Source: Dehalococcoidia bacterium | GTDB lineage: Bacteria; Chloroflexota; Dehalococcoidia; Lucifugimonadales; JAGWBF01 | Assembly: GCA_965197415.1 (NCBI GenBank) | Contig: OZ240207.1 | Span: 2,858,957-2,922,956 of the forward strand | Reading direction: 5' to 3' | DNA length: 64,000 bases | Shown: in pieces, positions 4,157 to 45,768 of the stretch | Numbering within the stretch: position 1 is the stretch's first letter | How the letters are laid out: the number at the start of each line of letters is the position of its first letter | The notes under the pieces: model-generated | What the model saw: the letters and a program-made list of their open reading frames with translations, nothing else | Database searches by the model: none | Told to the model about the DNA's origin: nothing | Program-made: the position numbers and the translations under genes

Positions 4157-4160
4157 AACG

Positions 4161-7205: not shown

Positions 7206-7268
7206 GGCAATGTGTTTCGGACATTTTGCATCGATGTTAAATCTTTGTTACATCCGAAACACATTGCC
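7206..7268. promoter_or_regulatory. Perfect 16-bp inverted repeat with a 31-nt loop carrying phased TGTTAC-like hexamers
   Basis: GGCAATGTGTTTCGGA (7206-7221) pairs with TCCGAAACACATTGCC (7253-7268). Hexamers start at 7213, 7224, 7235 and 7246. TGTTA-N8-TTACA lies at 7235-7252. Confidence 0.5.
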
Positions 7269-7288
7269 TTGGTCTTGTTTCCGCTTGC

Positions 7289-8638: not shown

Positions 8639-8688
8639 GGGCTCCCCTCCTACAAACCGATATTGGCGACTCCATTTCATTCGAGAGA

Positions 8689-20440: not shown

Positions 20441-20569
20441 TACCCCCACCCTAACCCTCCCCCTCGAAGGGGGAGGGGATATGCTTTCTCGCTCGTTGGC
20501 GCAGGCAACGCGACGAAAATAAACTGCGACTGCTCCTTCCCCCTCAGGGGGAAGGTTGGGATGGGGGTA
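20441..20569. mobile_element. 129-bp MITE-like element: two inverted copies of the GC-rich hairpin unit flanking a 54-bp core
   Basis: Left arm TACCCCCACCCTAACCCTCCCCCTCGAAGGGGGAGGGGA (20441-20479). Right arm TCCTTCCCCCTCAGGGGGAAGGTTGGGATGGGGGTA (20534-20569). The arms are imperfect reverse complements. Confidence 0.55.
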
Positions 20570-20573
20570 TCAG

Positions 20574-21521
20574 CTACCCGGACACCGCCGGCATGATCTC
20601 CTCGGCCACATACTGCATGTCGTCCAGAAGCCTCTGGGGGCTTTCTTTGGTCGGGTCTCCGCTGGTGGGGACGGCGGCCAGGTGTTTCAGTCCTGCCCGC
20701 TGGTAGGCCATCAAGTTGTCTATGATTTTGTCCTTGCTGCCCGAGGCGATGACAGCCACGTCCCCGGGATGGGGGTCTCCGATTCGAATCCCTCCGTACA
20801 TGGCTATGTCCATTTCGTCCAGGTTCCTGCCCCGGCTGTCCAGCTCTCTGCGCAGATTGTCCAACTCCGCCGCCAACTCCTCTGCGGTGACCCTGAGAGT
20901 GTAGTAGCCGGAGGCGTATTGGGCCGCCCTCTGCGCGGCCCTGGGACCGCCGTAGCTCCCCAGCCATATTGGTATGTGGGGCTTCTGAACGGTTTTGGGG
21001 AACCCCCCTATAGATTCGAAGGAGTGGAAACGCCCCTGGTAGCTGGACGCGCCGTCGCCCGTCCAAAGCTCCACGCAAATCCTCAGCCACTCGTCAGTGA
21101 CGGTCCACCGGATGCGGAACCGCTCCCCCATCTCCAAGGTTTCGAACTCGTCCTGCATCCAACCTGCTCCCGCTCCGAGGATGACACGTCCGTCGGATAG
21201 GCAGTCCAGCGTAGCCAGCATCTTTGCCAGCACCAAGGGGTTCCGGTAAGGAATCACCAGGACACAGAAGCCCAGCTTTATCCGCGAGGTCCTGGCCGCT
21301 ATGCCTGCCAGCATCGCTATGGGGTCGTAGATGTCCTGTCGGGCGCCGAAGCTGGATTCCGGGTAGCGGGCGTGGTGCCTCGCCGGCATCACCAGATGAT
21401 CGTGGGCCCAAACGGCGTCGAACCCCAGCTGCTCGGCTCTCTCCGCGATGTGCACCTGGTCTTCGGCTCCTCCCCTCTTTTCGAACCATCCAAAGTTGCG
21501 TATAGATATGCCCAGCTTCAT
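20574..21521 (-). CDS. Luciferase-like (LLM class) flavin/F420-dependent oxidoreductase
   Basis: 'MKLGISIRNFG', 'GFDAVWAHDHL' and 'LGAGAGWMQDEFE' are typical LLM blocks. ATG 21521 follows AGGAGG. Confidence 0.88.
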   Translation of the reverse strand: MKLGISIRNFGWFEKRGGAEDQVHIAERAEQLGFDAVWAHDHLVMPARHHARYPESSFGARQDIYDPIAMLAGIAARTSRIKLGFCVLVIPYRNPLVLAKMLATLDCLSDGRVILGAGAGWMQDEFETLEMGERFRIRWTVTDEWLRICVELWTGDGASSYQGRFHSFESIGGFPKTVQKPHIPIWLGSYGGPRAAQRAAQYASGYYTLRVTAEELAAELDNLRRELDSRGRNLDEMDIAMYGGIRIGDPHPGDVAVIASGSKDKIIDNLMAYQRAGLKHLAAVPTSGDPTKESPQRLLDDMQYVAEEIMPAVSG

Positions 21522-21584
21522 ACAGGCTCCTCCTGACTTTCCCGCGCGATTGATGCCCAAATATGAGGCCGCTCTGGCCAGCGC

Positions 21585-21800
21585 CTAGGATTCCCTTGCA
21601 CCAGCTCTGTCGAACAAGGCTGCGGCTAGCATTGGTCCCAATAATTCAGCCGCGTGTTCAATCATCACTCCATTAGGTTTGCCCTCGTTGTCGAAGAACG
21701 CTGTGACGTGCTCGGCGATGTCTTCTCCGTCGGGCGTAGGCTTCCCATTACTAAGCCATAAAATGTCGGTTTCCTTGTCGTAATCGATTATCAATTTCAT
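21585..21800 (-). CDS. DUF2283-family small protein
   Basis: 'KLIIDYDKETDILWLSNG' and 'VTAFFDNEGKPNGVMIEHA' resemble DUF2283. Start is 5 nt after the upstream LLM stop. Confidence 0.6.
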   Translation of the reverse strand: MKLIIDYDKETDILWLSNGKPTPDGEDIAEHVTAFFDNEGKPNGVMIEHAAELLGPMLAAALFDRAGARES

Positions 21801-21805
21801 AGGGT

Positions 21806-22768
21806 TTACTGCTTAAACAGGGGAAGAATCTCGCTGGCGAAAAGCTCCATGCCCTCGTCCAGCGCCTTGCGTGGGTCAGATTCTCCCGCGATGGACGGTG
21901 TGCATTGGATATGCTGTAGTCCCACCTTGGCGTACTCCCTGAGGTCGTTGATGACCTGGTCTGGGGACCCGGTGAGGGGCGGGCGGTCGTCCCCGTCGAC
22001 GGGCGCATCGGTAAGGACCGTCCTGCCGCTCGTGCATATTTCAATCTCTGACGGGTCCCTCTTGTCCCGACGGCACAGCTCCCGGAGCAGGGAGACCTCC
22101 TCGGCCAGCTGGGACGGGGTCACGTTTATGCATATGAACCCGTCCCCCAATCTGACCGCGCGCAGAGCTGCGTTGCGGCCTTTGCCTCCGAGGTATATTG
22201 GCGGGTGAGGCTTACGGTAGGGTTTGGGAAACGTGCCGGCGTCGATGAACCCCACGTAGCGCCCCACAAAGTTGGAGGGGCCGGTATTGGTCCACATCTC
22301 TTTGATGGCCCGGATGTACTCGGACGTTACGGTCCCCCGCCGCCGGAAATGTTCCGGGGGCAGGCCCAATGCGTCGAACTCGTCCTCCAGCCATCCGGCT
22401 CCGGCTCCCAGGATGATTCGCCCGTTGGAGAGGAGGTCTGCGTTGGCAAGCATCTTGGCGGTGAGCGCGGGGTGGCGGTATGGAATGACCAGTACGCTGG
22501 AGATTATGCTGACCCGGCTGGTGACTGCGGCAAGGGCGTTCATCATTACTAGCGGGTCGTAGATGTCGCAGTTCCAGGCGAAAGGGAAGTCCCCACTGGC
22601 GTTGTATGGGTAGGCGGACTTAAAGACCTCCGGAAGCACCACATGGTCATGAACCCAGATTGAGTCATATCCCAGGTCCTCGGCGTGCCTGGCGATGTCG
22701 AGGCAGGCGCCGGGTCCCGGCTCGTTGCCTATCGATCCCAGGTTGCCCGTGGAAACTCCAAACTTCAT
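21806..22768 (-). CDS. Luciferase-like (LLM class) flavin/F420-dependent oxidoreductase
   Basis: 'MKFGVSTGN', 'GYDSIWVHDHV' and 'LGAGAGWLEDEFDALG'. Paralog of 20574..21521. Confidence 0.88.
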   Translation of the reverse strand: MKFGVSTGNLGSIGNEPGPGACLDIARHAEDLGYDSIWVHDHVVLPEVFKSAYPYNASGDFPFAWNCDIYDPLVMMNALAAVTSRVSIISSVLVIPYRHPALTAKMLANADLLSNGRIILGAGAGWLEDEFDALGLPPEHFRRRGTVTSEYIRAIKEMWTNTGPSNFVGRYVGFIDAGTFPKPYRKPHPPIYLGGKGRNAALRAVRLGDGFICINVTPSQLAEEVSLLRELCRRDKRDPSEIEICTSGRTVLTDAPVDGDDRPPLTGSPDQVINDLREYAKVGLQHIQCTPSIAGESDPRKALDEGMELFASEILPLFKQ

Positions 22769-22835
22769 TAAGCGCCTCCCGTTGCTCTCATTTGAACGCC
22801 TAATCTAAAGCTGCTCTGTGTACCTGCGGTGAGGG

Positions 22836-22864
22836 TTGACGTTACGACTATACCACAGTATCTT
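22836..22864 (+). promoter_or_regulatory. Promoter candidate TTGACG-17-TATCTT for the amidohydrolase gene
   Basis: Hexamers at 22836-22841 and 22859-22864, 41 nt upstream of the ATG. Confidence 0.4.
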
Positions 22865-22904
22865 GAGGGCGAAAGGCAATTTCAGTCGACGCGAGGGGTA
22901 AGGA

Positions 22905-24107
22905 ATGGACGATTTCAAGTTGATCGACGGCGACGCTCACATACTGGAGCATGACAACATATTCGACAACTATCTCGAAAAGAAGTACCGGCATCTCATT
23001 GACGAGGCCAGCGTCAGGTGGTGCAGGACTTCCAACCTGGGGGAAAGGCGGGCCGCCCCAATGGAATACGACACCGCCGACCCGCTTTGCTTTGAAATGA
23101 ACCTGAAGGTCATGGGCAGGCAGATGCCCTTCGGGGCCGAAGGCTTTGTCAATGCCGCCAAGGGTTTTGAGGGAAGGGACCTGGATGACCTGGACCGGGC
23201 CTACGGTAAGTGGGCCGACATGAACTTCCCGGCCAGCGCGTACCGTGAGGTCATGGACACCTGCGACATCAGCCACATGATTCTGTACCCCACCGCCGGG
23301 TTCTGGCTCACAGGCGTGCAGGAGATGGACGGGGTCACCGCCAACGCCCTGCGCCGCGCGTACAACCGCTGGCTTGGCGACTTCTGTGCGGAGATTGGTC
23401 CCGGAGGCTGCGGAGCCGCTTCCATCGACCTGCGGGACCCGGTGGCCGCCGCAGAGGAGGTCCGCCGCTGTGTGAAGGAGTACGACTTCAAGGCCGTGCA
23501 CATGAACCCTGCTCCCCACCCCGACATCCGCGTCTACCACGAAGAGTGCGACGTGTTGTGGGAGACATGCGCCGAGCTTGGGGTGCCCATAGGGCTGCAT
23601 CCCAGCACCAGCCATCCCTTCGACCAGGGGTTCCTTACTTACATCGACGGTCTGAGAAACTGCGCCTCCGCCGTCTCATTTGTCATGGGAAGCATGTTGG
23701 CCTGCACCGCCTTCATTATGGGCGGAGTCCTGGAGAGGCACCCCAAGCTTAAGCTCGTGTTCCTGGAGTCGGGCTGCGGATGGGCCGCATTCTGGCCTGA
23801 CCGCCTGGAAGCCGGCATTCAGGGCGGAACCCGCAAGCTCAAGATTGAAGGCCTCAACCACTCGCCGCAGGAATACTTCGAACGCCAGTGTTTCGTTGCC
23901 GCTGACCAGGACGACCCTGGTTTGGAAGACCTGATAGACGCCATCGGAGACCACGTCATCCTCGGCGCCACCGACTTCGGCCACCCCGAGGGGCGCATGT
24001 ACTACCGGGCCAAGCAGGACATGATGAACATGCCCAACATCTCCCTTGAGAGCAAGCGGAGAATCCTCAGGGACAACTCCCTCAGGGCATATCCCATCAA
24101 ACCCTAG
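22905..24107 (+). CDS. Amidohydrolase-2 family metal-dependent hydrolase/decarboxylase (ACMSD-like)
   Basis: 'IDGDAHILEH' metal-binding start, 'AVHMNPAP' and 'ATDFGHPEG' near the C-terminus. Confidence 0.82.
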   Translation: MDDFKLIDGDAHILEHDNIFDNYLEKKYRHLIDEASVRWCRTSNLGERRAAPMEYDTADPLCFEMNLKVMGRQMPFGAEGFVNAAKGFEGRDLDDLDRAYGKWADMNFPASAYREVMDTCDISHMILYPTAGFWLTGVQEMDGVTANALRRAYNRWLGDFCAEIGPGGCGAASIDLRDPVAAAEEVRRCVKEYDFKAVHMNPAPHPDIRVYHEECDVLWETCAELGVPIGLHPSTSHPFDQGFLTYIDGLRNCASAVSFVMGSMLACTAFIMGGVLERHPKLKLVFLESGCGWAAFWPDRLEAGIQGGTRKLKIEGLNHSPQEYFERQCFVAADQDDPGLEDLIDAIGDHVILGATDFGHPEGRMYYRAKQDMMNMPNISLESKRRILRDNSLRAYPIKP

Positions 24108-24119
24108 CCCCCTGTACTG

Positions 24120-25097
24120 GTGACAACAAGGAAGAATCACAGGCGGCCGCTTACAGCGGCCGCCTTGCATATATGGGTGGGAACACTGGTGCGCATCGTT
24201 ATAATCTGCCTCATTGTTGTGGGGTCCCTCGCTTGCCAGTTCACATCGGAGCCCACTCCTGAACCGACTGGAGTTCCGACTCCTACAGCAACTCCGACCC
24301 TGGCTCTGACTCAGTCCCCTGTTTTGCCGACCCAGCCGCCAGCCGTGTTGCTGGACATCGCTGTGGCTCCCGTTCCAGACGATCTGCCTCCCTATGACCG
24401 CGACGACTGGCGCCACTGGACCGATGAGGACAGGGACTGCCAGAACACCCGCCACGAGGTCCTTATCGAGGAAAGCCGCACTGACGTTGTGTACAAGACC
24501 GGCGAGCAGTGCAAAGTGAAGGCAGGAGAGTGGTACGGGGCGTACACCGGCGTGGTGGTCACAGACCCGGCCAAGTTGGACATCGACCACTTCGTCCCGC
24601 TGGCAAATGCTCACAAGTCGGGCGGCTGGTCCTGGTCATCCGAGCGTAAGCGGAGCTATGCCAACAGTCTTGACGACCCCGGGCATTTGATAGCCGTTAC
24701 GTCCGGAGCCAACCGGTCAAAGGGAGCCAAAGGCCCCGAAGAGTGGCGCCCTTCCAACGAGGCATACTCTTGCCAATACGCTCTTGATTGGATCAAGGTC
24801 AAGCAGACCTGGGAACTGACCGCGACTCCTGCTGAGACAAGTGCGCTGCAGGAGTTGTTGGCAACCTGTGATAGCCCCACGGAATTGGCTCCCTCGACGG
24901 TGGAACCCGCTGCGGTGCCTACCGGTCCCAAGCCTGCTGCGCCAGGACAAGGGGCCGTCTTTTCATCATGCGACGAGGCTGACGATGCCGGAGTGCAACG
25001 GATTCAAGGGTCTGTAGGGTCGGGCAAAGGATTCCCCAAGTCAGTGGTCCCGAGCGCGCGTGACGGCGACGCTGACGGGGTAGTCTGCGAGCATTGA
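24120..25097 (+). CDS. Membrane-anchored extracellular nuclease: DUF1524/HNH-type (GmrSD C-terminal-like) domain plus C-terminal excalibur Ca-binding domain
   Basis: TM helix, a Thr/Pro linker, 'LDIDHFVPLANAH' and 'AVTSGANRSKG' His-Me motifs, and C-terminal 'CDEADDAG...RDGDADGVVCE'. The true start is probably GTG 24177, after the hairpin. Confidence 0.72.
   Translation: MTTRKNHRRPLTAAALHIWVGTLVRIVIICLIVVGSLACQFTSEPTPEPTGVPTPTATPTLALTQSPVLPTQPPAVLLDIAVAPVPDDLPPYDRDDWRHWTDEDRDCQNTRHEVLIEESRTDVVYKTGEQCKVKAGEWYGAYTGVVVTDPAKLDIDHFVPLANAHKSGGWSWSSERKRSYANSLDDPGHLIAVTSGANRSKGAKGPEEWRPSNEAYSCQYALDWIKVKQTWELTATPAETSALQELLATCDSPTELAPSTVEPAAVPTGPKPAAPGQGAVFSSCDEADDAGVQRIQGSVGSGKGFPKSVVPSARDGDADGVVCEH
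24141..24165 (+). terminator. Perfect 11-bp GC hairpin after the amidohydrolase gene
   Basis: AGGCGGCCGCT-TAC-AGCGGCCGCCT. There is no clear U-tract. Confidence 0.35.
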
Positions 25098-25143
25098 GAG
25101 CCAGACGTCCCTTCTTCTACGAGGCGATAGGATAGTCTCCGTC

Positions 25144-25163
25144 ATTCCGGCCTTCGCCGGAAT
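25144..25163. repeat. Short hairpin ATTCCGGC-CTTC-GCCGGAAT
   Basis: 8-bp perfect stem. It sits next to a copy of the GC-rich unit in a convergent intergenic region. Confidence 0.4.
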
Positions 25164-25190
25164 CCAGGGTCTACAGTAAAGCTGGGGCAG

Positions 25191-25225
25191 CCCTCACCCC
25201 AACACTCTCCCAGAGGGAGAGGGGG
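25191..25225 (-). repeat. Single copy (reverse orientation) of the GC-rich hairpin unit
   Basis: CCCTCACCCCAACACTCTCCCAGAGGGAGAGGGGG is the reverse complement of the CCCTCTCCC-N3-GGGAGAG..GGGGTGAGGG pattern. Confidence 0.6.
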
Positions 25226-25250
25226 AGCTTGTGCCTAGTCGGGCTTTGGC

Positions 25251-26474
25251 CTATGACCAGGAGACCGGCAGCGACTTCAGGGAGCGAAAGCTGTTCGTGG
25301 GATGGTACTCCAACTCCTCCGACTCCAGGCGCATATCAGGGAACCTCTCGGCCAGAGCCATGAACGCCTCCTGACCCTCCAGGCGGGCCAATGTGGCTCC
25401 AAGGCAATGGTGGATTCCTGAACCGAAAGCCACGTGCCTGTTGGGGTGGCGGGTGATGTCGAAGCGGTCCGGCTGGTCGAATATGTCGGGGTCCCGGTTG
25501 GCAGAAGCGATGTACCACCGCATCCGGTCGTGTTTGCCCACCGTCCGTTCTCCCAGCTCAACCTCTTCGCTGGCGATGCGCCCTATGGACTTGACCGGCG
25601 GGTCATAGCGGAGACATTCCTCCGTGGCTCTTACGGTCATGCCGGCCGGGTCTGACCTGAGCAGCTCCCACTGGTCGGGGTGCCGCATGAACGACAGGGC
25701 GCCGTTGCAAATCAGGTTGATGGTCGTCTCATGTCCGGCCATCAGCAGCAGTAAGGAGTTGGCCAGCGCTTCTTCTCTGCTGTAGGCGCCCGTCTTGACC
25801 CCTCCGGCCAGGATGGACATCAGGTCGTCCTTGGGGGAGTCCACCCTCTCTTCCATCAGAGGCTCCACGTACCCGATAAGCCCCTTGATCCCTTCAGCCA
25901 GGGGTTTCATCCTGCTGCTCTCGCCCCGTCCGATGAATGTCAGCTTCTCGGCCAGATCGCGTATGAAGAGCCTGTCCTCAGTCGGGAGCCCCAGCATCTG
26001 GGCAATCACCAGCACGGGCAGAGGGGTTGCGAAGTCCCGCATCATGTCCATGCGGCCTTCTTCCTCCACCTCGTCGAGCAGGTACTTGATGGCCGAGCGC
26101 ACCAGAGGACGCCACCTCTCCGTCTCCTTGGGTGTGAAGTAGTGGTGAACCACCCGCCGCATGTCGGTGTGAGTGGGACGGTCCCGCAACGCGAACCAGT
26201 CGGAGAAGAAGTCGGTCACGTAGTGGTACAGGCCCATGTCCTCTTCCTGTATGGGTGGATAGGGCGGACGTGGGTCCAGCTTGTGCTGGACTGAGGAGAA
26301 TAGTTCATGGTGGCGGGCAATCCACACCAGGTGGTCGTAGCGGGTGATAATCCAGATGTCGTACTTCTCGTTCCAGTGGATGGGATCCTCATCCCGGAGC
26401 CGCGCGAAATAGGGATAAGGGTCCGTCATCACTTCCGGGGAGAATATGTCGTCATCGATGGTCTGTATTGCCAT
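25251..26474 (-). CDS. Cytochrome P450
   Basis: Heme loop 'FGSGIHHCLGATLA', 'ETT' I-helix 'LLLMAGHETT' and the ExxR 'ECLR' motif. ATG 26474 follows AAGGAG. Confidence 0.92.
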   Translation of the reverse strand: MAIQTIDDDIFSPEVMTDPYPYFARLRDEDPIHWNEKYDIWIITRYDHLVWIARHHELFSSVQHKLDPRPPYPPIQEEDMGLYHYVTDFFSDWFALRDRPTHTDMRRVVHHYFTPKETERWRPLVRSAIKYLLDEVEEEGRMDMMRDFATPLPVLVIAQMLGLPTEDRLFIRDLAEKLTFIGRGESSRMKPLAEGIKGLIGYVEPLMEERVDSPKDDLMSILAGGVKTGAYSREEALANSLLLLMAGHETTINLICNGALSFMRHPDQWELLRSDPAGMTVRATEECLRYDPPVKSIGRIASEEVELGERTVGKHDRMRWYIASANRDPDIFDQPDRFDITRHPNRHVAFGSGIHHCLGATLARLEGQEAFMALAERFPDMRLESEELEYHPTNSFRSLKSLPVSWS

Positions 26475-26558
26475 GCGTCTCCTTGCCATGATTCGCTTCC
26501 GGCCAAGGATGATTGCTCAACCTATTATGCGCCGACATTCTTGTCAAGGACGTATGGA

Positions 26559-26852
26559 GCGTTTCGGTTTGACACCCATCACGCGCCCAAGTATTCTCAG
26601 CTTAACGCTGTCCGGACGGTGCCCGGCGCCCAATATGTCGAAGGCGGGGTTTCATGGGTCGTCTCGACTGTAAAACGGCGATAATATCGGGTGGAGCCAG
26701 AGGTCAGGAAGCTGAAGAGGCCCGTCTCTTCGCGTCCGAGGGCGCCAATGCGTTAATCGGCGACATCCGGGACGAACTTGGTGCACAGGTGGAGGAGGAA
26801 ATCCGCGAGCTTGGCGGCGCCGCAGACTATGTGCACCTTGACGTGACTCAGG
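26559..26852. repeat. Copy A of a diverged ~294-bp duplication (promoter + 5' end of SDR gene)
   Basis: Hand alignment to 31980-32273 gives about 42 mismatches in 294 positions and no indels. Confidence 0.85.
26569..26597 (+). promoter_or_regulatory. Promoter candidate TTGACA-17-TATTCT (copy A)
   Basis: Hexamers at 26569-26574 and 26592-26597. Both hexamers and the spacing are conserved in copy B. Confidence 0.55.
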
Positions 26853-26998
26853 GCTGGAGACGGTTCCCACGCTCCCGAAAGCCAAGGGCTAAGGGCCACC
26901 TACGTACAGGCGCCGTTACAATAGGAGGTATTGATGTCCCTGTCCCCTCGAGAAACGGGAGAATTGCCACAAGCTCTTGCGGGAGTGCGTATTGTTGA
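26654..26998 (+). pseudogene. Truncated SDR gene fragment (first ~66 codons homologous to 32075..32833, then unrelated sequence)
   Basis: 'MGRLDCKTAIISGGARGQEAEEARLFASEGA...AADYVHLDVTQ' parallels the intact SDR. After codon ~66 the similarity stops, and the ORF tail overlaps the next gene's start. Confidence 0.7.
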
Positions 26999-29618: not shown

Positions 29619-29622
29619 ACTT

Positions 29623-29826
29623 CTATTGGTTGCCGTTCCAGAGGTTGTCCAAGATACCCACTGGAGACAGTGAGAGCTGCTTCAATTTGACACCCACGGC
29701 CCTGTATATGGCGTTGGCCACATCAGCCGTGGGAGGCGCCAGCGTCACGTCTCCCATTCCTCGGGCTCCGAAGGGATGTCCGGGGTTCGCTGCCTCTACG
29801 GTCCCTAGCCAGGGGTGGCGCTCCAC
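29623..29826 (-). pseudogene. C-terminal remnant (~58 codons) of a molybdopterin XDH/aldehyde-oxidase large-subunit gene
   Basis: 'NPGHPFGARGMGDVTLAPPTADVANAIYRAVGV' parallels the C-terminus of 33657..36011 ('NPGHPFGVRGVGEVSLVPPMAAVANAIHDAIGV'). Its upstream part is replaced by the 3' end of the thiolase gene. Confidence 0.65.
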
Positions 29827-31139: not shown

Positions 31140-31184
31140 TGGTGATTCCTTTCTGAGAGCCTTAGTCCACAAGGATGTGAGTGT

Positions 31185-31595
31185 CTAGCTAACTACCCGC
31201 CACTCGGGGACCTTTTGGCCGTTGGCTGTGGCCTCGAACAGGACCTCCACACTGGCCCCCAACGGGACCTCGTCCACCGGAGTTCCGGGGAGGTGAGAAT
31301 ACATCTGGATGCTCGGGTCGTCGTCCAGCATAATTACCGCGACGTTGAAGGGTTGGTCGTCCTGAAGCAGTCTGATGGGGCAGTCGTAGACCACTCCGTA
31401 GTTGTATATCTTGCCGCGGCCGCTCATCTGCTTCCACTCCAGATTGTCCCCTGAGCCGCACTGGTCGCACGCCGGGACCGGGGGGTGCTGAAGCCTGTCG
31501 CAGGCTTTACAGTTCTGGATCACCAACCGCCCCTCGTTGGCGGCGTCCCAGAAGGGTTTGGTCAGCTCATCGGGCGCCACACCCTGCTTTACCAT
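31185..31595 (-). CDS. DUF35 OB-fold / rubredoxin-like zinc-ribbon protein
   Basis: 'CKACDRLQHPPVPACDQCGS' zinc ribbon followed by an OB-fold-like region. This is the typical partner of SCP-x thiolases. Confidence 0.85.
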   Translation of the reverse strand: MVKQGVAPDELTKPFWDAANEGRLVIQNCKACDRLQHPPVPACDQCGSGDNLEWKQMSGRGKIYNYGVVYDCPIRLLQDDQPFNVAVIMLDDDPSIQMYSHLPGTPVDEVPLGASVEVLFEATANGQKVPEWRVVS

Positions 31596-31979
31596 ATCTC
31601 ATCTCTCCTATTGTTAGTTTCCAGCGACTCGACAACGACGAGCTTTACCAGGTCAACAATACAGTCCGTCTTAACCGAGTCCTAGCTTACACGATTCCTC
31701 TGGCGCTCGAAACGCCACAGCAATCGACGGAACGAATCACGGGGAACTCGCCCGGCGACTTGGTTTGCCATGAGCTTTTAATATACTACATCCTGTTTCC
31801 AGCGAGGTAGAGCGTCATCGATCTACTAGGCAGGCGCTCTGGCTCGCCACGAATTAGCGCCTAACCCAAGATACATGGCATCTCCATGGGCGGTACAGTC
31901 TCGTTCCTTCGGCACACGATGCCGGCGGGCCGTTCGGTGCACTAGAGAACCGGCGCCCGATCCTCAGCAGGTTCCTACG

Positions 31980-32273
31980 GCGTTGCGGTTTGACACCCAT
32001 CCCATGCCCAAGTATTCTCTGCTTAACGGTGTGCGGGCGGCGCCCGGTGCGCAATATGTCCAAGGCGGGGTTTCATGGGACGTCTCGACGGCAAAACGGC
32101 CATCATATCCGGTGGAGCCAGGGGGCAGGGAGCTGAAGAGGCCCGCCTTTTCGCGTCCGAGGGCGCCAGTGTAGTCATCGGAGACATCAGAGATGAACTG
32201 GGCGTCCAAGTGGAGGCGGAAATCCGAGAGCTTGGCGGGGCCGCAGACTACGTGCACCTTGACGTGACCCAGG
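31980..32273. repeat. Copy B of the diverged ~294-bp duplication
   Basis: See copy A (26559-26852). Confidence 0.85.
31990..32018 (+). promoter_or_regulatory. Promoter candidate TTGACA-17-TATTCT (copy B) for the intact SDR gene
   Basis: Hexamers at 31990-31995 and 32013-32018. Confidence 0.55.
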
Positions 32274-32833
32274 AGGACGATTGGCGCAGGGCTGTGGAGT
32301 TTGCCGAGTCAAAGTACGGTGGGCTGAACGTTCTGGTAAACAATGCTGGCATCGTGACCTGGTCCGCCATCGATGAAATGCCCGTTGAGGAATGGGACCT
32401 GGTTATGGCCGTCAACATGCGCGGCGTGTTTCTGGGCACCAAGCACTCCATACCGGCCATGATAAGAGCTGGAGGAGGCTCCATAATCAACATCTCCTCT
32501 GGGGCGGGCATTGCCCCGGCCTCTCCTTCGTCCTCCGCCTACGCCGCCAGCAAGGGCGGGGTGCGGCTTTTCACCAAGGCAACGGCTATCCAACACGCCA
32601 AGGACAACATTCGCTGCAACTCCGTCCACCCCGGCCCCATAGACACACCCATGGTACAAGAGACCCGCATGGCCAGGCCCGATGAGATGGCGGCCCGCAT
32701 GGACCGGGTGCCCTTGGGTCGCATGGGCGAGTCCTCGGAGATAGCTTATGGAGTCCTTTTCCTTGCCTCCGACGAGTCGTCCTACATGACCGGCTCTGAA
32801 GTCGTCATCGACGGCGGCCGGACAGCCATGTAG
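32075..32833 (+). CDS. Short-chain dehydrogenase/reductase (SDR)
   Basis: 'TAIISGGARGQG' cofactor motif, 'NNAG' and the catalytic 'YAASKGG'. Confidence 0.92.
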   Translation: MGRLDGKTAIISGGARGQGAEEARLFASEGASVVIGDIRDELGVQVEAEIRELGGAADYVHLDVTQEDDWRRAVEFAESKYGGLNVLVNNAGIVTWSAIDEMPVEEWDLVMAVNMRGVFLGTKHSIPAMIRAGGGSIINISSGAGIAPASPSSSAYAASKGGVRLFTKATAIQHAKDNIRCNSVHPGPIDTPMVQETRMARPDEMAARMDRVPLGRMGESSEIAYGVLFLASDESSYMTGSEVVIDGGRTAM

Positions 32834-32877
32834 GTCGAGTTAGCGCTAGAGTCAACTCCAGAAACAGGAGGACACCA

Positions 32878-33555
32878 ATGACCAGACGAAAGGGATCAGT
32901 CATATCGGTGGTTTTCGCCGACGTTGACCCGGAAATGGACGATGAATGGAACCGGTGGTACAACGAGGAGCACATACCCGACCTGCTTAAGATGCCCGGA
33001 TACCTGGACGCCGCCCGGTATGAAGCTGTAAGAGGCTCACCCAGGTATCTGGCCATCTATGAACATGAGGATTTCGGCGTGTTCTCCACGCAGGAGCGAA
33101 ACGCCTACCGCGACAATCCTCCGGAGTGGACCCGGAGCATCCAGGAGCGAGGGGGAGCGCGTCTCACCATCCGCAACGTCTACACCCGAATCTACCCTGA
33201 AACAGAAGAGCCGGAAGCACTGGGCCGACCCATGCCTGCGGCGGTCCAGGTGGGGCGTATGGAAGTTCCCGCGGAAATCGAGGAAAAGTACAACCACTAC
33301 TACGACAACATACGTCTGCCCCAGAACACCGCCCTTCCCGGCTGCCTGTACGCCAGGCGGTTCCATTGCATAGAGGGGGGTGGGCCCAAGTATCTGACCC
33401 TCTACGAGTTCGAGCACGAGAACGTCTCGCAGACCATAGCATGGAACGAGTGGCGTAAGACTGACACCATGAACGACTACATTGGGGGCGACTACGACCA
33501 CGCTCCCGGCTCGCCGGGCGTGTACCGCCGTATCTTCCCTCAGCGATCTTTTTAA
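32878..33555 (+). CDS. Hypothetical protein with two tandem ferredoxin-like (EthD/DUF4286-like) half-domains
   Basis: Internal repeat: 'DDEWNRWYNEEHIPDLLKMPGYLDAARYE...YLAIYEHED' vs 'EEKYNHYYDNIRLPQNTALPGCLYARRFH...YLTLYEFEH'. SD AGGAGG. The family assignment is tentative. Confidence 0.5.
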   Translation: MTRRKGSVISVVFADVDPEMDDEWNRWYNEEHIPDLLKMPGYLDAARYEAVRGSPRYLAIYEHEDFGVFSTQERNAYRDNPPEWTRSIQERGGARLTIRNVYTRIYPETEEPEALGRPMPAAVQVGRMEVPAEIEEKYNHYYDNIRLPQNTALPGCLYARRFHCIEGGGPKYLTLYEFEHENVSQTIAWNEWRKTDTMNDYIGGDYDHAPGSPGVYRRIFPQRSF

Positions 33556-33629
33556 CCCTCACCCCAACCCTCTCCCAGCGGGAGAGGGGGTATGTTCCTT
33601 CCCCCAACGGGAAACGCTAGGATGGGGGG
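33556..33629. repeat. Two adjacent copies (reverse then forward, degenerate) of the GC-rich hairpin unit
   Basis: CCCTCACCCCAACCCTCTCCCAGCGGGAGAGGGGG (33556-33590) and CCTTCCCCCAACGGGAAACGCTAGGATGGGGGG (33597-33629). They start right after the stop codon at 33553-33555. Confidence 0.6.
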
Positions 33630-33656
33630 CGGACGAATAATGAAAGGGGGGCGTTG

Positions 33657-36011
33657 ATGACCACGGGACAGATAATAAAAAGCCCTGAAGTTCCCGATTA
33701 CAACGTAGTGGGCAGCAGGCCTGTGCGACACGACGGACCGGACAAGGTGACGGGCCGGGCGCGTTATGCCGCCGACACGTCCTTTGCCGACATTCCAGGC
33801 CCCGCGCTTCTGCATGCGAGGGCGCTTCGCAGTCCTCACGCCCACGCGCGCATCAAGTCTATAGACGCCTCCAAAGCCCTGGCCCTTCCAGGGGTGAAGG
33901 CAGTGGTCACGGCTGCCGACATGCCGGAGGTCTCGGCGAAGCTGTCGGAAATAGAGGAAGGAGCCGCCGTCAACTACGGCTTCTACAGCCGCAACGTCAT
34001 GGCTAGGGAGAAGGCGTTGTACAAAGGCCATACCGTGGCGGCGGTAGCGGCAACCAGCGCCCACGTCGCAGAAGAGGCGCTGGCCTTGATCGAGGTGGAC
34101 TACGAGGTCTTGGAGCCGGTGTTCACCGCCGAGGAAGCCATGAAGGACGATGCACCCATACTTCATGAGCGGCTGGTGACAATGGCCGACGCAGCCTTCA
34201 GAGGCGGCGGCTACGCCGATGACGACGTGGAACGGCCCTCCAACGTAGCCAACCATTTCGAGTTCAAGCTGGGCGAGCCTGAGCAGGGGTTTGCTGAGGC
34301 CGACGTGGTTGTGGAACGGGAGTACCACACCCGGCCAGTGCACCAGGGATACATCGAACCACACTCCGCCACCGCGTACTGGGGGACCGATGGGTTGGTG
34401 ACGATATGGACCAGTTCCCAGGGCCACTTCGCCCTGAGAGACCATACCTCCAGCATGCTTGAGTTGCCGGTGTCCCAGGTGAAAATCATCCCGATGGAAA
34501 TCGGAGGCGGATTCGGAGGCAAGGGGCAGGGCGGCTGCTACCTGGAGCCGGTGGCTGCGGTCCTTTCCCGAAAGACGGGACACCCCGTGAAGTTGAGCAT
34601 GACCAGGACGGACGTGTTTCTGGGCACCGGCCCGACGTCGGCAGGCCATATCAAAATCAAGATTGGCGCCAGGAACGACGGCAAGATGGTTGCCGCTGAT
34701 GCACGTCTGGTCTTCGAGGCGGGCGCCTTCCCCGGGTCGCCAGTAGCGTCGGGAACGCGGACTATTTTCGGCCCTTACGACCTACAGAACGCCTACCTGG
34801 AAGCGATGGATGTGGTGGTGAACACTCAGAAGGTCGCCGCTTACCGGGCGCCCGGCTCTCCCATAGCCTCCTTTGCAGCTGAGACAGTCATCGACGAGCT
34901 TTGCGAAAAGCTCGGCATGGACCCCATCGAGATGCGCTTGCTCAACGCTTCCAAGGAGGGGACACGGCAGGTGGTCGGGCCGGTGTTCCAGCGCATCGGC
35001 AACGTGGAGGTCCTCCAAGCCGCCAGGGATCACGACCACAACAAGACGCCGGTTTCGCCGGACGGTCCCGACGGAAAGAAGCGTGGGCGCGGGGTAGCCA
35101 GCGGCGCATGGATGAACGGCACAGGGCCTGCCAGCGCTGTGGCCTCCGTGCACGCCGACGGCACCGTAAGCCTTCTTGAGGGCTCCCCCGACATCGGGGG
35201 CAGCAGGGCCGTTGCCGCCATGCACGTGGCCGAGGTCCTGGGCATCGGCGCCGAGGACGTTAAGCCGGCCATCGGCGACACCGCGGCGATAGGCTATAGC
35301 AGCGGGGCTGGCGGTTCCGGTGTGACCTTCAAGACCGGCACCGCCGTCTACGAGGCGGCCCAGGACGTTAAACGCCAGATGATTGCCCGGGCGGCAACGA
35401 TTTGGGACGCTGACCCTGAGGACATCGAGTACAGTGACCGGGGTTCGCTGTCCCACAAGTCCGACCCGGAACTGCGAATGACTTTCGCGGAGCTTGCGGC
35501 CAGGTTGAACGCCACTGGCGGCCCCATTGTTGGAAAGGCTGCCGTCAATCCGTCGCGGGTGGGGAACGCTTTCGCCGTTCACATGGTGGACGTGGAGGTG
35601 GACCCGGAGACGGGAAAGGTGGATATACTGCGCTACACCACCTTCCAGGATGCAGGAACGGCCATACACCCCTCCTATGTAGAGGGGCAGATGCAGGGCG
35701 GAGCCGTCCAAGGCATCGGCTGGGCTCTCAATGAAGAGTATTACATGAGTGGCGACGGTCAGATGCTGAACTCCAGCTTCCTGGACTACAGGATGCCCAC
35801 TTCACTGGACCTGCCCATGATAGACACGGTGATAATCGAGGTGCCCAACCCTGGCCATCCCTTTGGCGTCAGGGGAGTGGGCGAAGTGTCGCTGGTGCCG
35901 CCTATGGCTGCCGTGGCCAACGCAATACACGACGCGATAGGCGTCAGAATGAACCGGCTTCCCATGAGCCCCGGGGCCATACTGGAAACCATGTGGGAAC
36001 AAGAGGGCTAA
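33657..36011 (+). CDS. Xanthine dehydrogenase/aldehyde oxidase family molybdopterin-binding large subunit
   Basis: 'VTGRARYAADT', 'HARIKSID', 'GGGFGGKG' and 'AYRAPG' blocks, plus the C-terminal 'NPGHPFGVRGVGE'. No FeS or FAD subunit genes are adjacent. Confidence 0.9.
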   Translation: MTTGQIIKSPEVPDYNVVGSRPVRHDGPDKVTGRARYAADTSFADIPGPALLHARALRSPHAHARIKSIDASKALALPGVKAVVTAADMPEVSAKLSEIEEGAAVNYGFYSRNVMAREKALYKGHTVAAVAATSAHVAEEALALIEVDYEVLEPVFTAEEAMKDDAPILHERLVTMADAAFRGGGYADDDVERPSNVANHFEFKLGEPEQGFAEADVVVEREYHTRPVHQGYIEPHSATAYWGTDGLVTIWTSSQGHFALRDHTSSMLELPVSQVKIIPMEIGGGFGGKGQGGCYLEPVAAVLSRKTGHPVKLSMTRTDVFLGTGPTSAGHIKIKIGARNDGKMVAADARLVFEAGAFPGSPVASGTRTIFGPYDLQNAYLEAMDVVVNTQKVAAYRAPGSPIASFAAETVIDELCEKLGMDPIEMRLLNASKEGTRQVVGPVFQRIGNVEVLQAARDHDHNKTPVSPDGPDGKKRGRGVASGAWMNGTGPASAVASVHADGTVSLLEGSPDIGGSRAVAAMHVAEVLGIGAEDVKPAIGDTAAIGYSSGAGGSGVTFKTGTAVYEAAQDVKRQMIARAATIWDADPEDIEYSDRGSLSHKSDPELRMTFAELAARLNATGGPIVGKAAVNPSRVGNAFAVHMVDVEVDPETGKVDILRYTTFQDAGTAIHPSYVEGQMQGGAVQGIGWALNEEYYMSGDGQMLNSSFLDYRMPTSLDLPMIDTVIIEVPNPGHPFGVRGVGEVSLVPPMAAVANAIHDAIGVRMNRLPMSPGAILETMWEQEG

Positions 36012-36036
36012 AAGTAGAACAATCTCAGGAGGAGAC

Positions 36037-37155
36037 ATGGTTGCGTTGCCTGACACTTGCAAAGTGGCCGCCCTCGTGGGCGTACATCAACCCATGGAGA
36101 TCATGGAAGTCCCGATTCCCAAAGAGATGGAGTACGGGTCGATTATCGTCAAGACCGCCTCCGCCACCATCTGCGGGAGCGACGTCCACTACTGGGAGGG
36201 TGAGTCCACCACCGCTCCGAAAGAGTTCCCGCGCATACTGGGACACGAGATGACCGGGCATATAGCCAGGATGGGCCCGGGCGTAACCCACGACTCGGTG
36301 GGCCAGCCCCTGAGCGAAGGCGACCGCATCATATGGACCCACGGGTTCTGCGGCCAGTGCCATTACTGCACCGTGGAAAACCAGTACACGCTTTGCACCA
36401 ACCGGCGAGGTTACATGTCACCGTTATGCACCGAATATCCGTATTTGGTCGGTGGATTCGCCGAATACTGCTACGTATACCCCACTTCCGGCAGGCTCAA
36501 GGTCCCAGACAGTGTGTCCGATGACTTGGCGTCCGCCGCGGCCTGCGCCCTGCGGACGGTGGTCCACGGGTTTGACCGCCTGGGGCGCATCGAGAACCGG
36601 CACACCGTCGCAATCCAGGGCAGCGGCCCTCTGGGCCTCTTCTCCTTGACCCAGGCGCTGACGGCCGGAGCCAGGAAGGTCATTGTCATTGGAGGCCCGC
36701 CGGGCAGGCTGGAGATAGCCAGGAAGTGGGGCGCCGACTATACGCTGGACGTGGGTGAACTCAACGCCCAGGAACGGCACGAACGCATCATGGACATCAC
36801 GGGTGGACAAGGGCCGGACGTGGTGGTCGAGGTGTCGGGCGCCAAGACAGCCTTCCCCGAGGGTCTGCAGATGGTCCGGGGGACTGGCCGCTACCTGATC
36901 ATCGGGCAAATCGGCCCTCACGAGGTCACTTTCAGGCCCGCGGACATCGTTCGCAAGCACATGCGCATCGTTTCCACCCAGTCGGCTAGCGTGGCTCACT
37001 ACTGGAAGGCGTTGCAGTTCCTCCAGGACAACGCCGAGAACTTCACGTTCGAGGACATGATTACCAGCCATACGCCTCTGGCGGGCATCAACGAGGCGAT
37101 GGAACGCATGAAGTCCTTCCAGGACCTTAAGGCCGCTCTGACCTTCCCCGACTGA
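36037..37155 (+). CDS. Zn-dependent alcohol dehydrogenase (MDR superfamily)
   Basis: 'ICGSDVHYWEGE', 'GHEMTG', 'CGQCHYCTVENQYTLC' and a 'GSGPLG' Rossmann motif. Confidence 0.9.
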   Translation: MVALPDTCKVAALVGVHQPMEIMEVPIPKEMEYGSIIVKTASATICGSDVHYWEGESTTAPKEFPRILGHEMTGHIARMGPGVTHDSVGQPLSEGDRIIWTHGFCGQCHYCTVENQYTLCTNRRGYMSPLCTEYPYLVGGFAEYCYVYPTSGRLKVPDSVSDDLASAAACALRTVVHGFDRLGRIENRHTVAIQGSGPLGLFSLTQALTAGARKVIVIGGPPGRLEIARKWGADYTLDVGELNAQERHERIMDITGGQGPDVVVEVSGAKTAFPEGLQMVRGTGRYLIIGQIGPHEVTFRPADIVRKHMRIVSTQSASVAHYWKALQFLQDNAENFTFEDMITSHTPLAGINEAMERMKSFQDLKAALTFPD

Positions 37156-37835
37156 TGGGACGCGTTCCCTTTCCCCCTCTCCCCCTGGGAGAGGGCTGGG
37201 GTGAGGGCCGGAAGGCGCTGCTGGGCACAACCAACCCCGCCAAGCTGGAACGCTTGCGGTGGCTGCTTGAGGGTCTTCCTATTGAGACCGTGGGCCCGTC
37301 GTCCCTGGGTTTGTCGGGGTTGGACATCGAGGAAGCGGGGGCGACCCACGAGGAAAACGCTCGTCTCAAAGCCGACGCTTGGTCCCAAGCGGCTGGCTTA
37401 CCGGCCCTGGCAAGCGACGGCGGCTTGGTAATACCAGCGTTGGGCGATAACTGGTTGAGCTTACACACCCGTCGCTTTGCTGGCGAGGACGCTGACGACG
37501 ATGCCCGCATACGCCGGCTGCTTGAGCTAATGGAGCCCTACAGCGAAGAGGACCGCAAAGGTGTATGGGTCGAATCAGTAGCCTTGGCGGGAGGCGGGCT
37601 GCCCACCGTTTCCTGGCTGATGGAAGGTCCTGCCGGATACATTCTGGAAGCGCCCGACGACGCTCACCGAATACCCGGGTTCTGGTTCTTCTCGTTGTGG
37701 TTCCTTCCAGAGCTGGGCAAGACCTACGCCGCCGCCCTTGACGGCCCGGAAGCGGACCTGGATTCCATAGGCGACCATTGGGCCCGCCTCAAGTCCAAGG
37801 TGCGGGACTATGTCACGAGACTTTCGGGCTCGTGA
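37155..37835 (+). CDS. Ham1/RdgB-like non-canonical purine NTP pyrophosphatase with repeat-derived N-terminal extension
   Basis: 'LLGTTNPAKLERL', 'EEAGATHEENARLKA' and 'ALASDGGLVIPAL' loosely match Ham1 motifs. The only in-frame ATG (37155, overlapping the upstream stop as TGATG) places the repeat unit in codons 7-18. Confidence 0.5.
   Translation: MGRVPFPPLPLGEGWGEGRKALLGTTNPAKLERLRWLLEGLPIETVGPSSLGLSGLDIEEAGATHEENARLKADAWSQAAGLPALASDGGLVIPALGDNWLSLHTRRFAGEDADDDARIRRLLELMEPYSEEDRKGVWVESVALAGGGLPTVSWLMEGPAGYILEAPDDAHRIPGFWFFSLWFLPELGKTYAAALDGPEADLDSIGDHWARLKSKVRDYVTRLSGS
37175..37207 (+). repeat. Single forward copy of the GC-rich hairpin unit, inside the 5' end of the Ham1-like ORF
   Basis: CCCTCTCCCCCTGGGAGAGGGCTGGGGTGAGGG, translated as PLPLGEGWGEG. 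Confidence 0.7.
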
Positions 37836-45251: not shown

Positions 45252-45461
45252 ATGGTTACTCTAGAACGCATACAAGCTATTGAGACTCGTGTAGAGGTTC
45301 TGGAGAAAAGTACAGCTTCTCTTACAGACCCTCTAACAAGGGTGCTGGACCTAACTGGACGGTTTATTGCTCATGCCGAAGCCATTGATAAGCGCATGGA
45401 CAGGATGGAAGCAACCCTCAATCAAGTGTTGGAGCATGTCCAAGGACGCACCACTTACTAA
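45252..45461 (+). CDS. Hypothetical small coiled-coil protein (69 aa) in the AT-richer island
   Basis: Its ATG overlaps the stop of the upstream frame (TAATG). Heptad-like 'IQAIETRVEVLEK'. No homology evidence. Confidence 0.3.
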   Translation: MVTLERIQAIETRVEVLEKSTASLTDPLTRVLDLTGRFIAHAEAIDKRMDRMEATLNQVLEHVQGRTTY

Positions 45462-45768
45462 CCCGTAAGTTCCCTGTATCTAAGTCGCTTCCCTTCCATC
45501 CCTGAATCATACCCCGTATCTGTTCCACAGTGTCCTTGGGCCGTTCATTGTGCCTTCCGGCAAATTCGGAGGCGTACCGCCCTACATGCTTGTGACTAAT
45601 GTGGTGATACGTTCCAGTTATCCCACGATTCAGCATCGCCCAGAAACTCTCAATCCCGTTTGTCGTAGCCATGCCCTTCACGTATTCTCCAGCATTGTAT
45701 ATAAGTCCCTTTCTTTTGTGTCCCCTTCTACCGAAAGGGACAGGTTGAAGGCCCCTAACGGGCGGCAC
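45418..45768 (-). pseudogene. IS1595-family (ISXO2-like DDE) transposase remnant, N-terminally truncated and internally deleted
   Basis: 'TNGIESFWAMLNRGITGTYHHISHKHVGRYASEFAGRHNER' matches the conserved C-terminal block of IS1595 transposases. The ORF is only 116 aa, and 'GRRGHKRKG' joins directly to the 'AGEYVKG' region. Confidence 0.65.

Follow-up and report, generated by a model that had tools for sequence, protein, structure and literature searches.

Repeat units and their gene context

We analysed a 64-kb stretch of a Dehalococcoidia genome of the Chloroflexota (contig OZ240207.1, positions 2,858,957 to 2,922,956; hereafter the window), which carries a family of short repeats corresponding to the BoxC/PIT/TMECO motif of Escherichia coli. 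The unit is about 35 nt long and consists of CCCTCTCCC, a loop, GGGAGAGGG, N3 and GGGTGAGGG. We identified 11 full copies and one decayed copy, where none is expected by chance, and all of them are confined to 20.4-47.3 kb. The best named relatives of the window proteins come from metagenome-assembled genomes (MAGs) of SAR202, Dehalococcoidia and Chloroflexota. For comparison we used loci L001 and L122, which lie on one circular 3.18-Mb ENA MAG contig (93.5-94.7% DNA identity to the window), and L123 and L124, on two other contigs (83-91%).

The first two units form an inverted (-,+) pair of 129 bp, located where an NHL-repeat gene and a luciferase-like monooxygenase gene converge, between their 3' ends (gene and domain assignments here and below are by Pfam). 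Its left arm, a variant-stem unit at 20443..20477 (-), reads CCCTCCCCC-TTCGA-GGGGGAGGG-TTA-GGGTGGGGG, with a third segment that mirrors the purine arm (A6 with T4); its right arm, at 20535..20567 (+), belongs to subfamily B and reads CCTTCCCCC-TCA-GGGGGAAGG-TTG-GGATGGGGG. Both were found by the scanner and the profile described below, and a 57-bp spacer (20478..20534) separates them. A single unit with one stem mismatch (GGGAGAGTG) lies at 25191..25223 (-), between the 3' ends of a GmrSD_C-domain nuclease gene (24120-25097), which it adjoins, and a P450 gene. The next copy, a perfect unit at 33556..33588 (-), starts on the first base past the TAA of a DUF4286 gene and makes a (-,+) pair with the decayed subfamily-B unit at 33597..33629 (+), with a gene for an aldehyde-oxidase-type molybdoprotein downstream. 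Another perfect unit, at 37175..37207 (+), is situated at the start of a Ham1/ITPase gene (37155..37835, +, 226 aa). Finally, six units are arrayed in the same orientation within the coding sequence (CDS) of an ABC exporter with ABC_membrane and ABC_tran domains (45898..48048, +, 716 aa), at 46972..47006 (loops CCCGC and CCA), 47048..47080 (loops CCC and CCG), 47095..47129, 47156..47188, 47203..47237 and 47264..47296, all on the plus strand.

Units were defined by a scanner that returned 11 of them in the window. It requires a 9-nt pyrimidine arm and its complementary purine arm, separated by a loop of 3-6, and then, past a second loop of 2-4, a G-rich third 9-mer with mirror symmetry, and it tolerates up to one mismatch in each element. 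A profile hidden Markov model (HMM) built from the 11 recovered all of them (E 4e-10 to 5e-7) and added only the decayed copy (33597-33628, E 0.65), with nothing comparable in the rest of the 64 kb. The palindrome CTCTCCC-N3-6-GGGAGAG matched nine times, against none in 100 dinucleotide-preserving shuffles, and the G-rich tail pattern ten times, against a shuffle mean of 0.58. ViennaRNA predicted a hairpin only for the unit, and for the whole 135-nt pair at 20.4 kb two hairpins closed by tail-tail pairing (z = -6.1). No Rfam family matched the window at gathering score, nor six of the DUF559 cassette loci described below at E <= 0.1.

A first-pass annotation of this DNA had described a dispersed family of a single hairpin unit, present as singles, inverted pairs and tandems and in several cases beside stop codons. 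The copies that it listed all exist, in each of the three arrangements, and the family is a genuine dispersed repeat with conserved boundaries. The proximity to stop codons is equally real, with the TAA at 33553-33555 abutting its unit and the complement of the TAG at 20574-20576 lying 7 nt from 20567. The single unit is better described as one family with two stem subfamilies, in which the third segment changes together with the hairpin stem. The six-unit array is not intergenic but in frame inside CDS 45898-48048, and the copy at 37175 lies inside the Ham1 gene's only standard-start open reading frame (ORF).

Identity of the unit and its three-strand rule

The window units are very probably the published BoxC/PIT/TMECO intrastrand-triplex motif, present in this Chloroflexota genome as non-autonomous repeat DNA. 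TMECO was defined as 5'-CCCTCNCCC-N3-6-GGGNGAGGG-N3-GGGNGAGGG-3', with one mismatch allowed, and described as a class II purine-motif intrastrand triplex with the earlier names BoxC and PIT element (Holder 2015, PMC4666352; see also Bergler 1992; Hoyne and Maher 2000). The HPG1/HPG2 G-quadruplex-hairpin motifs of E. coli are another name for the same sequences (Kaplan 2016, PMC5100583). Nine window copies fit the TMECO pattern, eight of them perfectly and one (25191) with a single mismatch, and the copies at 20443, 20535 and 33597 are stem variants outside its strict form. Of the second loops, CCG matches the published type B and TTG/TTA type A, and oligonucleotides of the pattern with a CCG or TTA second loop formed triplexes in vitro, as judged by circular dichroism (CD) and nuclear magnetic resonance, with a melting temperature of 70-82 C (PMC4666352). 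Since the unit matches the published pattern to the letter, the repeat itself was already known; what is new here, relative to the papers searched, is its occurrence in Chloroflexota, its in-frame coding copies and its association with DUF559 genes.

In the triplex model, the 9-nt C-rich arm and the complementary 9-nt purine arm would form a hairpin, and the 9-nt G-rich segment 3 nt further on, which mirrors the purine arm and so can lie on it, would serve as a third strand (G on G-C, T or A on A-T). None of the 11 full copies departs from the class II triad rules (G on G, T or A on A, antiparallel) at more than one position. The stem variants are covarying cases: arms CCCTCCCCC / GGGGGAGGG are followed by GGGTGGGGG, arms CCTTCCCCC / GGGGGAAGG by GGATGGGGG, and, at an orthologous site in L123, arms CCTTCTCCT / GGGAGAAGG by GGATGAGGG. 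In every non-canonical case the A/T positions of the purine arm reappear in mirror order in the third segment, a covariation that is demanded by the triplex model, and not by a hairpin with an arbitrary conserved tail or by a G-quadruplex. We extended this comparison to 529 perfect pyrimidine/purine hairpins, picked regardless of the sequence that follows them from 1.03 Mb (the window and 125 loci). Their mirror scores were bimodal, with 204 at 9/9 and the rest centred on 3-5, and about 20 of the perfect-mirror hairpins have stems unlike the pattern that had been used to fetch the loci. We regard the mirror pattern as covariation evidence from sequence, and not as proof of a structure in cells.

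Distribution across bacteria and viruses

We investigated the distribution of the motif with the pattern CCCTCTCCC-N3-5-GGGAGAGGG-NN-R-GGGTGAGGG (27 fixed bases and one purine) in a 596-Gb collection of species-representative genomes. It matched at least 120 genome stretches, where the chance expectation is estimated at less than 0.01 in 596 Gb, even at 65% GC. The matches listed include Pseudomonadota, Planctomycetota, Chloroflexota, Cyanobacteria, Acidobacteriota, Verrucomicrobiota, Bacteroidota, Actinomycetota, Myxococcota, Nitrospirota, Omnitrophota, Elusimicrobiota and others, among them genomes of 32-39% GC in which the unit contrasts with its surroundings. Among the viral contigs of IMG/VR, at least 120 contain the same pattern, and of 5426 complete E. 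coli genomes 5365 do, at a median of 16 places.

Association with YcjD-like DUF559 genes

Genes for DUF559, a very common domain of unknown function, recur beside the motif. In a Gastranaerophilales MAG of 39% GC (L093, 2407-2839), a complete DUF559 domain lies between two units, in frame in priA just upstream of Walker A. Homology to solved PriA structures restarts directly after the second unit, and the whole looks like a selfish insertion, with neither intron nor intein, in a replication-restart helicase. Units also stand on both sides of a DUF559 ORF in Acinetobacter (L009). E. coli K-12 carries a full TMECO between the DUF559 gene ycjD and fabI (envM), about 170 bp downstream of ycjD, in an interval which we take to be the one of the original BoxC description. 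YcjD itself ends in a C-terminal PSP-stop encoded by a degenerate unit arm (CCCTCTCCC-TGAAA-GAGCGAGGG; L126 5385-5420, NC_000913.3 ~1351385-1351420).

To sample DUF559 loci independently of the motif, we fetched them with the scan patterns ELDGGQH and KFRRQ and kept 80 metagenome loci of 34-72% GC. A unit lies within 150 bp of the gene in 61 of these 80 YcjD-like loci, and units near the gene number 108 in 49.5 kb, against 23 in the 230 kb elsewhere, a 22-fold excess. Offsets were taken from DUF559 homology and not from ORF stops, which are misleading because the ORFs read through the stop-free motif. Units are strongly oriented with respect to the gene, with 37 (+) and four (-) within 100 bp upstream of DUF559, and 42 (-) and one (+) within 50 bp of its 3' end. 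Further units often lie outside the inner ones, giving (-,+) pairs at each cassette end.

The 26 cassettes in which both inner units are present measure 397-511 bp. When the left end is compared with the reverse complement of the right, identity rises from about 0.3 to 0.7-1.0 starting 2 nt before the C-arm, stays high up to the end of the third segment and then falls to about 0.25, which delimits sharply bounded inverted ends of about 37 nt. Several cassettes match at 33-35 of 35 end positions, for example one of 416 bp in an AT-rich context (L173 324-739). The first loop, which is unconstrained, is identical on both sides in 10 of the 26 (permutation mean 0.79, maximum 5 in 5000), and a direct flank repeat of at least 4 bp was found at none of the 26. 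In L173 (324-375), the third segment of the upstream unit (GAGGGG) stands 3-7 nt before the DUF559 start and may double as a ribosome-binding site.

Looked at from the motif, the association is far rarer. Of 121 motif-anchored loci (the 120 genome-scan matches listed, plus the E. coli ycjD region), only five contain DUF559 or a fragment of it abutting a unit, namely L009, L029, L093, the Dehalococcoidia MAG locus L110 and E. coli ycjD, and DUF559 accompanies the motif in one of the 120 viral matches listed. DUF559 is found on only about 1-3% of motif loci, as against the motif at 61 of 80 DUF559 loci. A distant DUF559 subfamily from viral contigs (37-45% identity to YcjD, high-GC small contigs) has the motif in just 2-3 of 28 loci, indicating that the link is specific to YcjD-like members. 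DUF559 similarity follows the motif subtype weakly (0.554 vs 0.531; 1/2000 permutations). Not every pair of units brackets DUF559: the widely spaced pairs in L042 and L109 enclose ORFs that on inspection are unrelated and have no DUF559 signature.

DUF559 has a Vsr-like PD-(D/E)XK nuclease fold (solved relative 3HRL), and PADLOC assigned no defence system to the DUF559 proteins. DUF559 genes are enriched (odds ratio 14) among predicted targets of programmed inversion, that is, genes flanked by inverted repeats, and Vsr/DUF559 nucleases have been placed with a homing-endonuclease family (PMC3424549). We found no literature linking DUF559/YcjD with BoxC/TMECO, in a search that did not reach many subscription papers. 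For a comparison across the E. coli strains of a published table of motif numbers, we presumed the phylogroup labels of the strains. In phylogroups A, B1 and C, ycjD stands in place of the eefRABCD operon. The motif numbers of the table (PMC4666352) are 18-30 for the strains taken as A, B1 or C, with the exception of UMNK88 (13), and 0-2 for those taken as B2. This is a hint of a correlation between ycjD and motif number, and one confounded by phylogeny. Salmonella is reported to lack the motif.

Thus, YcjD-like DUF559 genes are associated with the motif as inverted ends, and the dispersal of the motif may be tied to YcjD-like endonuclease cassettes that carry it at their ends. On a plausible though tentative reading, BoxC/PIT/TMECO is the terminal inverted repeat of pan-bacterial selfish YcjD-like DUF559 cassettes of about 400-500 bp, and solo units and pairs, including those of the window, are their non-autonomous derivatives.

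Turnover between close relatives and alternative explanations

We compared the intergenic copies of the window with the syntenic loci of its relatives. The pair at 33.5 kb is kept in all four genomes (window, L122, L123 and L124) and is decaying by point changes, the L124 counterpart (16514-16546) of the decayed unit at 33597 being better preserved. At 20.4 kb the position is conserved and occurs as two alleles: the window and L124 share the variant units with their 57-bp spacer, and L122 and L123 have other units with a spacer of about 17 bp. Right beside this pair, L122 has a 2.5-kb insertion that is absent from the window (3119-5952, at about window 20547), with two ORFs without Pfam match and flanked by a 320-bp duplication of the 3' region of the luciferase-like gene. 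The unit at 25191 is present in L123 with CCG instead of TTG as second loop (three changes within 4 nt), and in L122 the entire 2.7-kb region is gone. Upstream of an adh_short gene, a unit in L123 and L124 corresponds to an unrelated 30-bp sequence in the window and L122; that unit holds the same position relative to the adh_short start as the L173 unit does before the DUF559 start.

Close relatives thus differ by gain and loss of units and by their exchange for other variants, with presence/absence and allele replacement seen between genomes that are 83-95% identical. At the two pairs of occupied and empty sites (37175 and upstream of adh_short) the unit replaces 14-30 bp, and neither has a target-site duplication. 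Tandem gain and loss could proceed through replication slippage or unequal recombination between units, helped by a stable single-strand fold-back.

One alternative, which we consider unlikely, is that the units are host-selected regulatory elements (a G-quadruplex/hairpin/duplex switch, a terminator or an mRNA stabiliser) with no selfish spread. Units do abut a stop codon (33556) or sit just upstream of ribosome-binding sites (adh_short in L123 and L124), the G-rich tail in L173 precedes the DUF559 start codon by 3-7 nt, and a G-quadruplex/hairpin switch has been proposed in the literature with CD support. However, published tests of BoxC/TMECO detected neither promoter nor terminator activity, nor any tie to gene class; closely related genomes differ in the copies that they carry, and copies are also located inside coding sequences; and the mirror covariation of A/T positions is unneeded for a G-quadruplex. 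A regulatory role is in any case compatible with the units being BoxC/PIT/TMECO repeat DNA, the two not being exclusive.

It is very improbable that the units are repetitive extragenic palindromic (REP) or REPIN elements mobilised by a REP-associated tyrosine transposase (RAYT; IS200/IS605-like Y1). In favour of this, the units are short palindromes outside genes that stand at gene ends, singly or in inverted pairs, and BoxC was formerly listed among the small palindromic repeats of E. coli. REP families are, however, reportedly lineage-specific, whereas the sequence here is identical across many phyla, and its conserved third segment is without counterpart in REPs. Neither Y1/RAYT nor DUF559 was detected in the window by Pfam on about 50 long ORFs and HMM search of the six-frame translation; Pfam likewise gave no Y1 transposase among the genes called in L001 and L122-L125, and no lineage-specific repeats flanking a cognate RAYT appeared among the window ORFs scanned and the syntenic loci. 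The gene that the motif does bracket is DUF559, not RAYT. The first-pass annotation's idea of a cognate transposase accordingly finds within the window only a truncated IS1595 remnant, and its candidate, YcjD-like DUF559, outside.

The same annotation saw in the 129-bp pair an element resembling a miniature inverted-repeat transposable element (MITE), with TA...TA ends. An origin from a TA-duplicating DDE transposon (IS630/Tc1-like) is hardly credible. TA does stand at both outer ends in the window, and a truncated DDE transposase lies at 45421-45768; but the same allele in L124 is flanked by GA...AG, so the TA ends are not a conserved boundary and lend no support to a TA target duplication. 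Terminal inverted repeats with target-site duplication were not seen at the occupied and empty sites, nor were direct flank repeats at the DUF559 cassettes, and the transposase remnant is of the IS1595 family and 25 kb away. The suggestion of a REP/MITE-like element that is mobile or recombinogenic is therefore partly supported: local rearrangement and whole-unit gain and loss are real, and the proposal was right in spirit and wrong in family, which is BoxC/PIT/TMECO.

Copies read in frame within genes

The unit at 37175 is found only in the window, where the ancestral Ham1 start (ATGGCCGTGAGG in L122) has been removed. A new ATG at 37155 overlaps the upstream TGA, and the unit is read in frame as PPLPLGEGWGEG. 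The Pfam Ham1 domain begins at residue 23 of the 226-aa CDS, which is 15 aa longer than the 211-aa L122 orthologue. As the gene has no other standard start codon, the N-terminal extension is probably translated, and one unit now probably supplies the N-terminus of a Ham1 protein.

In the ABC exporter, the six units are inserted between RVSFEAVRFHYG and EVLRNINLTIEPGQRVAVLGAPGSGKS, in a turn ahead of the strand that leads to Walker A (flanking strands RVSFEAVRF and VLRNINLTIE). Their spacing alternates between 49 and 59 nt, so that successive units are read in two frames (PSPxAGEGQGEG and PLSPRERAGVR; PSPPAGEGQGEG in unit 1, PLSPRERAGVR in unit 2), and the 108-nt double unit keeps the frame. 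Tandem Repeats Finder gave the same 108-bp (36-codon) double-unit period, with 2.5 copies and 95% matches. By direct reading, the third forward frame through a unit has a TGA and the three reverse frames are open; with five of six frames free of stops, copies can persist in genes if the frame is kept. Homologues of the exporter that are 86-96% identical outside the insert have between one and five units at this site, in frame in every case, and those that are about 65-70% identical have no units or differently arranged ones. In a DNA alignment with the two L001 exporter copies, the differences are whole units. The second of these (L001 2763-4538) was considered as an independent insertion and rejected, its flanks being nearly identical to the window gene, as in a duplicate or paralogue sharing the insertion; the two L001 genes are duplicates of each other.

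An AlphaFold2 model of the exporter (mean pLDDT 67) has no secondary structure at residues 355-469 (pLDDT 25-33), between strands 345-353 and 471-480, with most of the rest at 70-90. The array is thus predicted to form a disordered insert of roughly 113 residues, rich in P, S, G, E and R, in a surface turn of the ATPase domain. Selection may tolerate this insert while the frame is kept, with unit number shifting by slippage or unequal exchange. Gain or loss of a single unit would shift the exporter frame, and on/off switching by unit number is therefore conceivable.

In-frame units were also identified in the adenylation domain of an NAD-dependent DNA ligase (LigA; Planctomycetota, L039), the linker of DnaX (L004), UDP-galactopyranose mutase (Glf; Muribaculaceae, 32% GC, L100), a YgiQ radical-SAM protein (L070), VgrG (L113) and, as described above, PriA. 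Open frames across motifs in L007, L029 and L051 gave antisense or junk-like translations and were not counted.

It is highly implausible that the exporter array has no relation to the intergenic units and is a repeat selected at the protein level for the peptide it encodes, for example as a flexible linker: the frame is kept in all homologues and the P/G/E-rich insert is like natural linkers, but one DNA unit is read in two frames within the array, which indicates conservation at the DNA level, the array units are identical to intergenic copies, distant homologues lack the insert, it is predicted to be disordered, and the divergence at synonymous sites with a conserved peptide expected of such a repeat is the opposite of what is seen.

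Weight of the evidence and implications

Several observations weigh against tracing the window units to triplex-forming ends of DUF559 cassettes. By tblastn and HMM search of six-frame translations, a DUF559 gene or remnant is absent near the motifs from the window, L001 and L122-L125, and the window contains solo units and pairs in place of a motif-DUF559-motif cassette. The window pairs are (-,+), like the outer modules, whereas the units directly bracketing DUF559 are (+,-). The similarity of the two units flanking one gene could partly reflect genome-specific motif subfamilies. As to the triplex, our scanner defines units by the triplex rule, in vivo triplex has not been detected and published dimethyl sulphate footprinting was negative, and the same sequences may act as a G-quadruplex/hairpin/duplex switch (Kaplan 2016, PMC5100583). 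Single units fold no better than composition-matched shuffles (z -0.15 to -2.5), so that the argument stands on conservation and covariation and not on folding energy. For the coding copies, the exporter model was built on 23 sequences (pTM 0.54), and it is from intact frames alone that the array and the Ham1 extension are taken to be translated.

If the cassette reading is correct, the thousands of solo units and inverted pairs would be made or maintained by a YcjD-like nuclease through a duplication-free, homing-like or repair-dependent mechanism, and stop-free frames would let the element, and even a whole cassette, persist in frame in essential genes. The origin and spread of the motif have been unexplained since the 1990s, and DUF559 would be the first concrete enzyme candidate for a 30-year-old orphan repeat, with a possible function for the domain in return. 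E. coli K-12, with one ycjD gene and 23 motif copies, offers a direct test system.

Independently of its origin, a repeat that resembled a new REP or MITE is explained as a known triplex-forming motif, now documented in Chloroflexota. The motif is not limited to intergenic DNA, about half of the window copies being in frame inside genes. Its amplification in frame would give rise to length-variable disordered inserts in conserved proteins (the ABC exporter; LigA, DnaX, PriA and Glf), and gene callers and protein-family models will meet it as 'PSPxxGEGxGEG' or 'PLSPRERAGVR' peptides.

Other features of the window

The truncated IS1595-family (ISXO2-like) DDE transposase remnant at 45421-45768 (-) comprises 116 aa (profile positions 102-153 of 153) and lies just upstream of the ABC exporter; synteny with L001 ends upstream of there. 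The aldehyde-oxidase-type and zinc-ADH genes downstream of the 33.5-kb pair are separate in the window (33654-36011 and 36037-37155), and in L123 (16642-20049) they are called as one 1135-aa ORF, through fusion or an assembly frameshift. An Mrr-type restriction endonuclease gene (61511-62440), a PIN toxin gene (52991-53395), whose L001 orthologue is paired with a PhdYeFM antitoxin gene, and the GmrSD_C-domain gene beside the 25191 unit are defence or toxin-antitoxin genes scattered over the window, and have no evident tie to the repeats.

We additionally identified a 247-bp direct repeat (716-961 and 1410-1656, 99% identity), in which the 3' end of an ABC ATPase gene (246-959) is copied inside a possibly spurious ORF without Pfam match, 961-1668(-). 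An 18/24-nt tandem repeat (42486-42557) in a Glucodextran_B-domain gene (42186-44771) is read as a Thr/Pro-rich stretch and seems to be an ordinary linker repeat with no relation to the triplex motif. On the minus strand, two glutamine synthetase genes followed by two ammonium transporter genes (2701-8680) make up a duplicated nitrogen-assimilation module. The window has no tRNA genes, and the idea of a tRNA-associated integration site was dropped for that reason.

Comparison with known systems

The in-frame copies recall the Rickettsia palindromic elements (RPEs), which are said to be inserted in frame into genes. Both are selfish palindromic repeats tolerated in frame in surface regions of conserved proteins, with open frames through the element. 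The sequences are unrelated, however, and RPEs are 100-150 bp long and belong to one genus, whereas the units here are about 35 nt, pan-bacterial and also found in tandem arrays.

With the REP/REPIN-RAYT system, the DUF559 cassettes share a layout of few protein-coding 'master' copies in inverted repeats and many solo repeats. They differ in that the protein is a Vsr-like PD-(D/E)XK nuclease and not an HUH Y1 enzyme, and in that the repeat is cross-phylum and has a third, mirror-symmetric segment. The closest enzymes are I-Bth0305I and other Vsr-like (EDxHD) homing endonucleases (PMC3239194), which belong to the same nuclease superfamily clade and likewise include small selfish endonuclease genes inside intact host genes. 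In contrast to these, which ride group I introns, the cassette here has neither intron nor intein, and only the inverted motif ends of about 37 nt, and the activity of YcjD-like proteins is predicted.

The nearest relative of the window units remains BoxC/TMECO itself. The sequence agrees to the letter, including both second-loop types, as do the occurrence as singles and inverted pairs, the local variability and the lack of a known transposase; the closely spaced inverted pairs 20443/20535 and 33556/33597 show these traits in the window. The published range covers mainly Proteobacteria (262 genomes), with G/C-rich motifs in cyanobacteria, whereas the copies here, about 12 per 64 kb, are from Chloroflexota. 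In E. coli the motif is reportedly always intergenic, whereas six units here, and probably seven, are in frame in genes (six in the ABC-exporter CDS, as a tandem array of variable copy number, and one in the Ham1 ORF); intergenic location is a descriptive trait of E. coli and lies outside the sequence definition. Finally, the window contains stem variants that fall outside the strict TMECO pattern, yet keep the triplex rule.

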